DNA of 63,321 bases, counting the filler, from Rhabdomonas costata (lineage: Eukaryota): the NCBI GenBank assembly GCA_019059605.1. It is 23 parts of 23 records of this genome, joined end to end, with 100 filler letters (N's around TTAATTAATTAA, not from the genome) between each part and the next. Parts side by side here need not be neighbours in the genome. Positions count along the whole stretch, not along the records: positions 11,064 to 13,720 come from JAHMHO010002464.1; 22 more parts are not named here. One strand, 5' to 3'. The notes beneath the pieces were generated by a model that was given only the letters and a program-made list of their open reading frames with translations, was not told where the DNA came from and ran no database searches. The position numbers were made by a program, and so were the translations under genes. Of the stretch, positions 11,068 through 12,435 are shown piece by piece (the first letter of the stretch is position 1; each line of letters starts with the position of its first letter).

Positions 11068-12435
11068 GTGGTGAAGGTTGACAAGGATGACATGCTGAAA
11101 TACGCCGGAAGGCTTTCCCATGAAGGCGGCAGAGTCTTGGTGCTGAACATGGCGAACGGCTTTCGTCCGGGTGGTGGGTGGCAGTCGGGGGCAGACGCTC
11201 AAGAGGAGGGCCTGTTTTACCGCACCACGTTATACCTGGGCATGGCCCCCTTCACGACGGAAGGCGGAAAGCTGAACTACCCTCTGTCGACCTTTGGGGG
11301 GCTTCTCACGAAAGATGTGCTTGTGTTGCGAGGGCCTGAATCCGAGGGGTTTCCCTTCCTTTCTCACCCTTTCTTGGTCGATATCGTCTCTGTGGCTGCC
11401 TTCGATCACAAGAATTATGTCCCCCCACAGGGCACAGATCCGGAAGGGATAACCGAGAAGAGGAACGACGGACGAGTTGTATTGCGGTCGAGCGTGGCAG
11501 TGTACACCCGGCGAAAGCTAGAAACCATTTTCCGCATCGCCATGCAGTATGGCTACACGAAGCTCGTCCTGAGTGCGGCGGGCTGCGGTGCCTTTGGAAA
11601 CCCTCCTGCGTGCATAGCGGGGATATTTTATGATCTGCTTTTGGAGTATTCCCCATACTTTGAGGAAATCAGCTTTGTTATTCAGGGGTCGAACTTTGAC
11701 GTCTTTCACAAGGTACTTTCTACCTTTCAGCCGGTGGAGGCAGGGGTGCCTCACGTTGACTACAGCCAAACCACCGCAGTGTGCCAGTATGGTGCGCTTT
11801 GCAACAAAATCGATGAGCACCGGGACCCTGTGCATCCACCTCGGTGCCCGTTCTATGCTGGGAAATGCCCGCTGCTGAGCAAGCTGCCCTGGCATGCCCA
11901 TCTGATGTGTCACCGCCAGGACTGCCCCAGTCAGGGGCTGTGCCAGAAATGGCATCTGCAGTCACATGCTGAGTGGTTCAACCACCCCGAAAAGTGTTCC
12001 AACGGTTGGGCTCACTGCGACCGCACCGACGAGACCCATCTGAAGGCCTACTTGCATGCCCCTCCTTGTCCCAAAGGGATGGACTGCCCTTTGCTCTCCA
12101 AGCGCACTACGGAAGCCGAGAAACACAAGTCCGAGTACCGACATCTGCAGTCCGTGTGCCCGGACGATGCCTGCTGCCTGCGAATTGCAGACCGCGGACA
12201 CAGCATGACCCACTTGCACAGCTTTTGCCCACCCTGCGAGGACCCCTTGTGCTGCACTATCAGGGAGTCTTCCCACGCAAAGGAGTTCTCCCACTACTGC
12301 AGCTTTGGCCCAACCTGCCCTCAGAAGAACGACCCTGTGCACTATAAGGCTCACCTCCACGCTCTGAGTGCGGTATGTGGCCAGGGCGAAGCCTGCACCT
12401 GCATCTCAGAGGAGCACTGGAGCACCATGTTATGA
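11068..12435 (+). CDS. Bacterial-type PARG macrodomain (TIGR02452/DUF2263) fused to 9 tandem PBZ-like CCHH zinc fingers, 5' partial
   Basis: 455-codon uninterrupted ORF. VLNMANGFRPGGGWQSGADAQEEGLFYRTTL carries the GGG-x6-8-QEE PARG signature and LVLSAAGCGAFGNPP is the diphosphate loop. From 11782 there are repeated C-x5-6-C-x5-12-H-x4-5-H motifs. Confidence 0.9.
   Translation: MVKVDKDDMLKYAGRLSHEGGRVLVLNMANGFRPGGGWQSGADAQEEGLFYRTTLYLGMAPFTTEGGKLNYPLSTFGGLLTKDVLVLRGPESEGFPFLSHPFLVDIVSVAAFDHKNYVPPQGTDPEGITEKRNDGRVVLRSSVAVYTRRKLETIFRIAMQYGYTKLVLSAAGCGAFGNPPACIAGIFYDLLLEYSPYFEEISFVIQGSNFDVFHKVLSTFQPVEAGVPHVDYSQTTAVCQYGALCNKIDEHRDPVHPPRCPFYAGKCPLLSKLPWHAHLMCHRQDCPSQGLCQKWHLQSHAEWFNHPEKCSNGWAHCDRTDETHLKAYLHAPPCPKGMDCPLLSKRTTEAEKHKSEYRHLQSVCPDDACCLRIADRGHSMTHLHSFCPPCEDPLCCTIRESSHAKEFSHYCSFGPTCPQKNDPVHYKAHLHALSAVCGQGEACTCISEEHWSTML

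Follow-up and report, generated by a model that had tools for sequence, protein, structure and literature searches.

A microbial-type PARG macrodomain joined to an array of PBZ-related zinc fingers in Rhabdomonas costata and other eukaryotes

The PARG macrodomain and the finger array

The window analyzed here is a stretch of 63,321 nucleotides from Rhabdomonas costata (GenBank assembly GCA_019059605.1), made up of 23 separate contigs of 2,647–2,686 bp each with guanine–cytosine (GC) contents of 47.4–56.4%, and its principal feature is a partial gene coding for a microbial-type poly(ADP-ribose) glycohydrolase (PARG) macrodomain joined to an array of zinc fingers related to the poly(ADP-ribose)-binding zinc fingers (PBZ; poly(ADP-ribose) is abbreviated PAR below). 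The contig that bears this gene, JAHMHO010002464.1, occupies positions 11064..13720 (2,657 bp); its GC content of 56.4% is the highest of the 23 pieces and near that of several others. It is bounded at each flank by a spacer of the form N44-TTAATTAATTAA-N44, and a scan for N-runs over the whole window recovered 44 runs of 44 N paired around TTAATTAATTAA. As the pieces are unrelated contigs, nothing about the surroundings of the gene may be inferred from adjacent pieces or across the spacers, and the "neighbouring contigs" of a preceding sequence-only reading were not neighbors at all.

The open frame (11065..12435, + strand; 457 codons) is open from the second base of the contig, the edge of which cuts off its 5' part; it is closed by a TGA stop at 12436..12438 (+), where the fourth ligand, a histidine, of the last finger is expected. 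No other frame of the window stays free of stops for as long: with the N spacer included it counts 471 codons against 266 for the next, among 45 frames of at least 150 codons. The GTG at 11068 is no true start and is an artefact of open-frame calling, the frame being open from the contig edge. Hence, the gene on this contig is a fragment, with its start lying off the contig at the 5' edge and its 3' end possibly incomplete. The absence of an intron from these 1.37 kb was correctly noted, and is borne out by homologs that align colinearly in single tblastn high-scoring segment pairs (HSPs) over 11068-12430.

The first 224 residues (11065..11736, +) form a microbial-type PARG macrodomain lacking its N-terminal part, as delineated by the PF10021 and TIGR02452 profiles and by an AlphaFold2 model. 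PF10021 (the microbial-type PARG catalytic domain, formerly DUF2263) is matched at E 5.7e-15, with 56.4 bits against a Pfam cut-off of 23.5, and TIGR02452 at E 6.4e-20, with 71.8 bits against an NCBIfam cut-off of 50; both profile assignments made earlier from the sequence thus hold above curated cut-offs. The TIGR02452 match spans profile positions 65-255 of 266, and since it starts at position 65 and the contig begins at 11064, the first ~64 positions, approximately a quarter of the domain, lie off the contig; the missing N-terminal part is a limit of the assembly and offers no evidence on the gene itself. The catalytic signature GGG-x7-QEE (GGGWQSGADAQEE; 11170..11208, +; aa 36-48) and the diphosphate-binding loop GCGAFGN (11581..11601, +; aa 173-179) are intact, as had been claimed for a GGG-x6-8-QEE macrodomain of the DUF2263/TIGR02452 type. 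Both align with their counterparts in the PARG of T. curvata (TcPARG, 3SIG; E 6.6e-15), where GGGWQSGADAQEE corresponds to PGGGFLSGAHAQEEGL and GCGAFGN to GCGVFGN, and the two catalytic glutamates are at least 90% conserved in 34 long homologs. The macro part of the AlphaFold2 model superimposes on the D. radiodurans enzyme (DrPARG, 5zda_A) with a Z of 21.0 and a root-mean-square deviation (rmsd) of 2.9 over 189 aa, the next-best Z being 16.5, and retrieves TcPARG (3sih) in Foldseek at E 7e-13. Judged by profiles, motifs and model, the macrodomain is a microbial/bacterial-type PARG with intact catalytic motifs and the macro fold, and PAR hydrolysis by it is likely.

The macrodomain shares with TcPARG (3SIG) and DrPARG (5ZDA) the macro fold, the GGG-x6-8-QEE loop and the GCGxFGN loop; those enzymes are single-domain proteins of about 24% identity, whereas the PARG studied here is fused to the array. 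There is a further difference: the TcPARG stretch 'apgaprhaa' is, in the family-profile alignment, an insertion missing from the finger-array family. This insertion carries the ribose-cap arginine, which, in those passages of the DrPARG paper that concern it (PMC6445106), is described as enforcing exo-only action. Given that the family lacks it, access to internal PAR units, possibly in an endo mode, is conceivable and would be compatible with the missing insertion.

From 11782 onwards the frame specifies eight complete, non-overlapping units of the form C-x5-6-C-x5-13-H-x4-5-H and a ninth without its last histidine, with 35 of the 36 expected zinc ligands in place. Shuffling the array 10,000 times with its composition preserved never gave more than four such units. 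The prior description of nine CCHH units thus stands for the start at 11782, for both strings quoted from it and for eight complete fingers; it does not stand for the ninth, where the stop replaces the fourth ligand. All are on the + strand. Finger 1 (CQYGALCNKIDEHRDPVH; 11782..11835) is a C-x5-C-x5-H-x4-H unit that keeps C-x-Y-G as CQYG, and is followed by finger 2 (CPFYAGKCPLLSKLPWHAHLMCH; 11845..11913), by finger 3 (CPSQGLCQKWHLQSHAEWFNH; 11923..11985), which is C-x5-C-x7-H-x5-H with F-x-H, and by finger 4 (CSNGWAHCDRTDETHLKAYLH; 11995..12057) with Y-x-H. Finger 5 (CPKGMDCPLLSKRTTEAEKHKSEYRH; 12067..12144) has a long Cys-to-His spacer of 12 residues and Y-x-H; finger 6 (CPDDACCLRIADRGHSMTHLH) lies at 12157..12219; and finger 7 (CEDPLCCTIRESSHAKEFSH; 12235..12294), with F-x-H, is the only one with exactly the canonical C-x5-C-x6-H-x5-H spacing. 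Finger 8 (CSFGPTCPQKNDPVHYKAHLH; 12298..12360) comes nearest to the PBZ consensus, with C-x-F-G as CSFG and KN-PVH, and finger 9 (CGQGEACTCISEEHWSTML; 12376..12432) is incomplete, having three ligands only. [F/Y]-x-H is thus found in fingers 3, 4, 5 and 7, and the aromatic–glycine pair solely in fingers 1 (CQYG) and 8 (CSFG), just as had been reported; the loss of this motif from most fingers is also a family-wide trait.

A family of PARG–finger fusions in eukaryotes

When the array alone (aa 235-456) was searched exhaustively against 1.84 billion cluster representatives, 112 proteins scored E<=1e-3, and 44 of these reached E<=1e-10. Most of them align over the full ~210-aa array, within proteins of 1,300-3,450 aa. 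With the macro part of the R. costata protein as a phmmer query, a macrodomain was detected directly upstream of the array in 59 of the 112. Among the other 53, four have at least 250 residues ahead of the array match and the other 49 have fewer, except for two in which this search found no array match; going by this short stretch, most of the 53 look like N-terminal fragments. When the 112 relatives were compared with the window by tblastn they gave single colinear HSPs across 11068-12430 and no match elsewhere in the window; HSPs spanning both macrodomain and array came from P0054, P0030, P0039, P0044 and P0046, with P0054 aligning over its aa 1052-1509 at 38% identity (E 6e-82). The sources include the euglenids Euglena gracilis and Petalomonas cantuscygni, the Amoebozoa Copromyxa protea and Pelomyxa schiedti, Diphylleia rotans, and the bdelloids Rotaria and Adineta, and one rotifer fragment bears the UniRef name 'PBZ-type domain-containing protein'.

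The family consensus consists of ten fingers in a fixed register, with fingers 1-9 of the R. costata protein aligning to family fingers 1-9. The Cys and His ligand columns are each about 87-100% conserved; in finger 5, for instance, they are kept in 99/99, 100/100, 91/96 and 93/94 sequences. Other features are specific to position: C-x-aromatic-G is kept mainly at finger 1 (40/77), finger 6 (34/93) and finger 8 (56/85), and the glycine after the first cysteine at family fingers 1, 3, 5, 6 and 8, while for aromatic-x-His the count at each finger is 46-83 out of 77-94 sequences. The ~450-aa module formed by the macrodomain, a short linker and the in-register array of ten fingers lies, in most complete relatives, within a protein of 1,300-3,450 aa. 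Downstream of the module these proteins have a conserved stretch of ~500-600 aa and, beyond it, about four PBZ-like fingers at the C-terminus. The conserved stretch is covered by roughly 30-50 other matches when the long members are compared, and was located at aa ~1550-2250 of P0054, aa ~1000-1650 of P0042 and aa ~1300-1900 of P0030. Its consensus contains the motifs PVHRCS, VFSILGPH.G..YG....VFK..IM.HPD and SH.V.E.HLP, and it has no match in Pfam or among PDB sequences. With the P0042 version of this domain the ESM Atlas returned two clusters, one a rotifer cluster that is probably its own and a second of 57 members, all with PF10021 and 60% with PF10283 (score 0.77), which offers a lead only.

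Certain relatives carry additional domains that act on or recognize PAR. P0033 (1,999 aa) combines the PARG and the finger array with WWE domains, and a PARP catalytic domain is present in one of the 79 family members scanned; such additions strengthen the link of the array to PAR metabolism. Within the PARG–finger family, eraser, reader and writer modules are thus seen joined in several ways. A search with the whole protein by a near-length word index yielded 23 proteins, all matching the macrodomain only (42-48% of the query), namely stand-alone bacterial and fungal PARGs and one PARG–WWE protein. The latter, P0001, a metagenome protein of 410 aa (PF10021 + PF02825), is the best near-length match, with 37% identity over the macrodomain; it fuses the PARG to WWE, an established PAR/iso-ADP-ribose reader, in place of the zinc fingers, and has no array. 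The same index gave none among 2,174 candidates when searched for longer proteins, which reflects a limit of the index, the exhaustive search having found 112.

The sequence-only reading had regarded this architecture as unusual. That view does not survive, given the fusion in 59 of the 112 array homologs and an earlier mention in print: in the part of Perina et al. 2014 (PMC4245714) that deals with PARG architectures, few PARGs are said to have extra domains, and several PBZ repeats are ascribed to the PARG of Adineta vaga, citing Slade et al. 2011, with the legend of its Fig. 2 describing them as drawn as PBZ in A. vaga. Full-text searches for Adineta vaga with PBZ and PARG returned PMC4245714 only, and those for microbial-type PARG with PBZ returned none; the DrPARG paper names a rotifer only as a holder of a bacterial-type PARG (PMC6445106). 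The A. vaga protein, as portrayed in PMC4245714, has the same architecture and by our searches belongs to the same family. The Adineta and Rotaria proteins P0072, P0085, P0125, P0042, P0058 and P0063 match the R. costata array, and their macrodomains fall in the same tree. They are about 30-35% identical to the R. costata protein, the nearest relative of which is euglenid instead, and many of the rotifer copies have a canonical-motif finger, e.g., finger 1, whereas the R. costata copy has none. By homology, then, the locus is a member of a known, uncharacterized eukaryotic family of PARG and finger-array proteins; our literature search found no biochemical study of a PARG–PBZ fusion. A protist PARG, that of Entamoeba dispar, is described in PMC4245714 with tandem adenosine-polymer-binding fingers of the Nab2 type; those are CCCH fingers, and our searches recovered no sequence-level relation between them and the array studied here.

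The origin of the R. costata copy can be addressed from a maximum-likelihood tree (LG+G4, with SH-like approximate likelihood-ratio test, SH-aLRT, supports) of 69 macrodomain segments: that of R. costata, 45 fused ones (of the 59 fused relatives, those matched over no fewer than 150 positions of the query) and all 23 stand-alone ones. The R. costata macrodomain is sister to that of the fused Euglena gracilis protein P0054 (SH-aLRT 95; 49% identity over 206 columns), and the next neighbors of this pair are fused Amoebozoa proteins. As the deep branches are weak and the tree is unrooted, it does not tell the order of the fused and stand-alone forms. It lends no support to a recent bacterial transfer, and the sister Euglena protein argues against one. 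Thus, a one-off fusion in an intron-rich genome, arising by retroposition or after a bacterial DUF2263 gene had recently been acquired by horizontal transfer, as the sequence-only reading had suggested from the lack of an intron in 1.37 kb and with which the purely stand-alone PARGs among the 23 word-index matches might agree, is very improbable in view of this placement among eukaryotic fused forms, of the colinearity of the whole macrodomain–array module with relatives in four distant eukaryotic groups, of a contig GC content that is at the top of the window range and yet inside it, and of the fact that the contigs used for comparison are no neighbors.

Affinity of the fingers to PBZ domains

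The sequence profiles of the array point to the PBZ of APLF and to no other finger type. A profile built from the nine fingers of R. costata and searched against 177,635 PDB sequences has the APLF PBZ as its top match (E 0.002); the alignment runs through the whole of both APLF fingers, and the next match is at E 1.1. Profiles of the family reach the tandem PBZ of APLF at E 2.3e-7 (34 long members) and E 1.4e-6 (69 rows). With APLF as the top profile match, the array fingers are, by this measure, PBZ relatives. Direct matches to the Pfam PBZ model are seen in the relatives: PF10283 is matched at E<=0.01 in 14 of 79 scanned, at best with 6.7e-9. Among the positions examined the strongest match is to the extra C-terminal fingers of P0063 (28.3 bits); finger 1 of the P0029 array scores a sub-threshold 15.9 bits, and the finger just past the array of P0033 scores 22.5 bits against a cut-off of 22.7. 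Further, the relaxed motif C-x-[FYW]-G-x2-C-x5-8-H-x3-[FYW]-x-H occurs in at least one finger, often finger 1, of 68 of the 112 homologs.

The human APLF tandem PBZ (2KQB-2KQE, 2KUO; PF10283) shares with the array the C-x5-C Cys2His2 arrangement, the glycine after the first cysteine and the terminal aromatic-x-His. Against this, the two APLF fingers are set apart by a linker and both possess Tyr-Gly, Cys-Tyr-Arg-Lys and a basic pocket, whereas the 9-10 fingers of the array follow one another directly and most have an additional residue ahead of the first histidine; the array has neither a tyrosine after the second cysteine nor a [K/R][K/R] pair, and carries a net charge of about zero; the Pfam model also misses the R. 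costata copy. In the published consensus, [K/R]xxCx[F/Y]GxxCx[K/R][K/R]xxxxHxxx[F/Y]xH, as it is given in the relevant portion of PMC4756826, several of these positions are specified. The contacts to the ligand are summarized in the legend to Fig. 12 of PMC6264785 as a pair of adenine-contacting tyrosines, Y381/Y386 of APLF (Tyr386/428 being critical), and a phosphate-binding arginine, R387. The first aromatic, equivalent to Y381, is found only in fingers 1, 2 and 8 of R. costata, and the [K/R][K/R] pair in none of its nine fingers; across the family the sequences with an aromatic after the second cysteine number just 0-3 of about 71-100 at each finger. By the published consensus and residue roles, the array fingers are therefore degenerate; that the array reads PAR is no more than plausible.

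Possible roles of the fusion and the state of the gene

Taking these features together, we favor, as a probable account held with some reserve, an enzyme in which an active PARG macrodomain is coupled to a rigid PBZ-derived array, a few fingers of which hold PAR near the active site. Briefly, we propose the following plausible mechanism. The macrodomain would cut the ribose–ribose bonds of PAR by means of Glu47/Glu48 of the GGG-x7-QEE signature, in the manner of the T. curvata and D. radiodurans PARGs. The adjoining fingers, each a putative Zn(Cys2His2) unit derived from PBZ, would be packed as a single zinc-stabilized body. Fingers 1 and 8 here (1, 6 and 8 family-wide), which keep the aromatic–glycine pair expected to contact ADP-ribose, might then keep PAR, or a PARylated target, close to the active site, with the remaining fingers serving mainly as structural spacers. 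The rigidity is suggested by AlphaFold2: the prediction for the 456 aa, with 78 relatives as the alignment, has a mean predicted local distance difference test (pLDDT) score of 91.2 (about 85-96 in the array blocks) and a predicted template modeling (pTM) score of 0.82, and the array alone gives a pLDDT of 91.5 and a pTM of 0.74. For a row of small fingers, a pTM this high points to a single rigid body rather than beads on a string.

Several results weigh against this account. The AlphaFold2 confidence belongs to a prediction made without zinc, and the array model lacks a counterpart among the structures searched: none of 75 Foldseek rows reached E<=1e-3, and VIA-align gave Z>=2 for none of 48,161 representatives and none of 74 Foldseek candidates. 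The non-significant Foldseek rows are headed by the Nab2 CCCH fingers 5-7 (E 0.34), the type of finger described for the Entamoeba dispar PARG in PMC4245714, and then include 2kuo (0.55), 2kqb (2.6), 2kqc (6.8) and CHFR 2xoc_A (E 8; rmsd 0.9 over 24 columns). A single-sequence search of the PDB with the array returned chance-level rows only, the best being CKS1 at E 0.15, and the ESM Atlas gave no usable match for it. PF10283 is without a match in the R. costata protein (E<=1) or in the array alone (E<=10). None of the nine fingers fits the PBZ consensus, even by a relaxed regular expression, and none has an aromatic after the second cysteine, the place of Tyr386/428 in APLF. Nor is the array basic, its net charge (K+R-D-E) being -2; the idea that all nine fingers tether PAR is not supported on these grounds. 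Likewise, the median net charge of 65 family arrays is -1; 26 of them are positive and 34 negative. Finally, the gene is incomplete on the contig, with no start and with a stop in place of a zinc ligand, and downstream of that stop (after 12438) relaxed tblastn gave no family match below E 0.1, the best being E 0.18.

The main rival is a second explanation, in which the PARG half is real and the array is no PAR reader, being instead a rigid, zinc-stabilized PBZ-derived scaffold that no longer binds ADP-ribose and serves as a spacer or a docking surface for another ligand. We consider this possible, though less probable than the above, and it would fit the want of consensus fingers, the family-wide loss of the Tyr386 equivalent and of the basic [K/R][K/R] pair, and the neutral to slightly acidic charge. 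The fixed ten-finger register with its position-specific features and the high pTM, which suggest one integrated body, speak for it too, and there is a parallel in SNM1A, the PBZ of which is stated, in the section of PMC4756826 that treats it, to lack critical residues and perhaps not to bind PAR. The ligand docked there might be another protein, a nucleic acid or the domain conserved downstream of the array. The best, albeit weak, Foldseek rows, Nab2 fingers 5-7, which bind polyadenosine RNA, would also fit this explanation. What such a scaffold would leave unexplained is the company that the array keeps, being joined family-wide to a PAR-hydrolysing domain and in some members to WWE (P0033) or a PARP catalytic domain, as well as the selective retention of C-x-aromatic-G at fingers 1, 6 and 8, the maintenance of aromatic-x-His, and the profile matches to APLF PBZ to the exclusion of other finger types.

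A third explanation concerns the copy on this contig rather than the family, and takes it for a truncated, non-functional fragment, a pseudogene or a partial duplicate, of a full-length member elsewhere in the genome. It draws on the 3' end, where finger 9 reads C-x5-C-x6-H-WSTML-stop: the TGA sits exactly at the family histidine (consensus C..G..C.....E.HL....H; CPDSGCTSLAEDHLNTFSH in Euglena P0054), and neither family finger 10, the ~500-600-aa downstream domain nor the C-terminal fingers are found in any frame of the remaining 1,285 bp of the contig or in the rest of the window, although they may lie beyond the contig. No further finger pattern occurs in the six frames of those 1,285 bp, no other contig of the window matches the family and no start is visible. 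Against it stand the 457 uninterrupted codons, free of stops and frameshifts, the two intact catalytic motifs and the 35 of 36 ligands, which argue for a gene under selection; moreover, the 5' truncation is an assembly edge and no feature of the gene. The sequence GTTATG at 12426 lies 10 nt ahead of the stop and might be a splice donor, in which case H-x5-H would be restored from an exon beyond the contig. Three readings of the 3' end thus remain, namely an intron, a natural early stop and a truncated copy, and we judge the explanation by a non-functional fragment to be quite unlikely. A use of TGA as a sense codon was considered and set aside: the 457-codon frame has no in-frame stop of any kind and the next 87 codons are unlike the family.

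Past the stop there are overlapping open frames at 12439-12699 (+), 12375-12779 (+) and 12510-12971 (-), with about 60-63% GC; these, including the 87 codons in the gene's own frame, are rich in Gly, Arg and Ala, are unlike the family and look non-coding. Nearer the 3' end of the contig, at 13440-13720 (+), two short stretches are alike (translated ...FTPNSVLCM... and ...LHTQLSV...), suggesting a local repeat. On another contig (30364-33037), a 220-aa frame at 32281-32943 (-) matches Stealth CR2 (E 1.5e-8, under the gathering score) and CR3 (E 7.4e-6; 26.2 bits against 24.2), and is the sole Pfam match among the ten next-longest frames of the other contigs. No Rfam family was matched in the whole window.

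If the account of a hydrolase with a few PAR-holding fingers is carried further, the ten-finger array might be an ancient, rigid, in-register PBZ-derived domain without a solved structural counterpart, in which fingers 1, 6 and 8 read PAR at set distances from the active site and the array thereby works as a ruler or track, conferring chain-length selectivity or a processive (possibly endo-mode) degradation. The array and the downstream domain would then mark out a separate class of giant PAR-processing enzymes, common to euglenids, Amoebozoa, CRuMs and bdelloid rotifers. In this full form the proposal is speculative and, in our estimate, rather unlikely.

The R. costata locus is in itself not surprising, given the family, to which it adds a euglenid-like member; what had been mentioned only in passing for one rotifer is a fusion widespread among distant protists. 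Beyond that mention, the family has a fixed ten-finger register with conserved ligands and few PBZ-like reading positions, and its full-length members have a further large conserved domain lacking a known family. PAR signaling is usually pictured with separate writers, readers and erasers. Against this backdrop, the covalent joining of an eraser to a reader would provide a simple route by which the removal of PAR may be targeted or paced.

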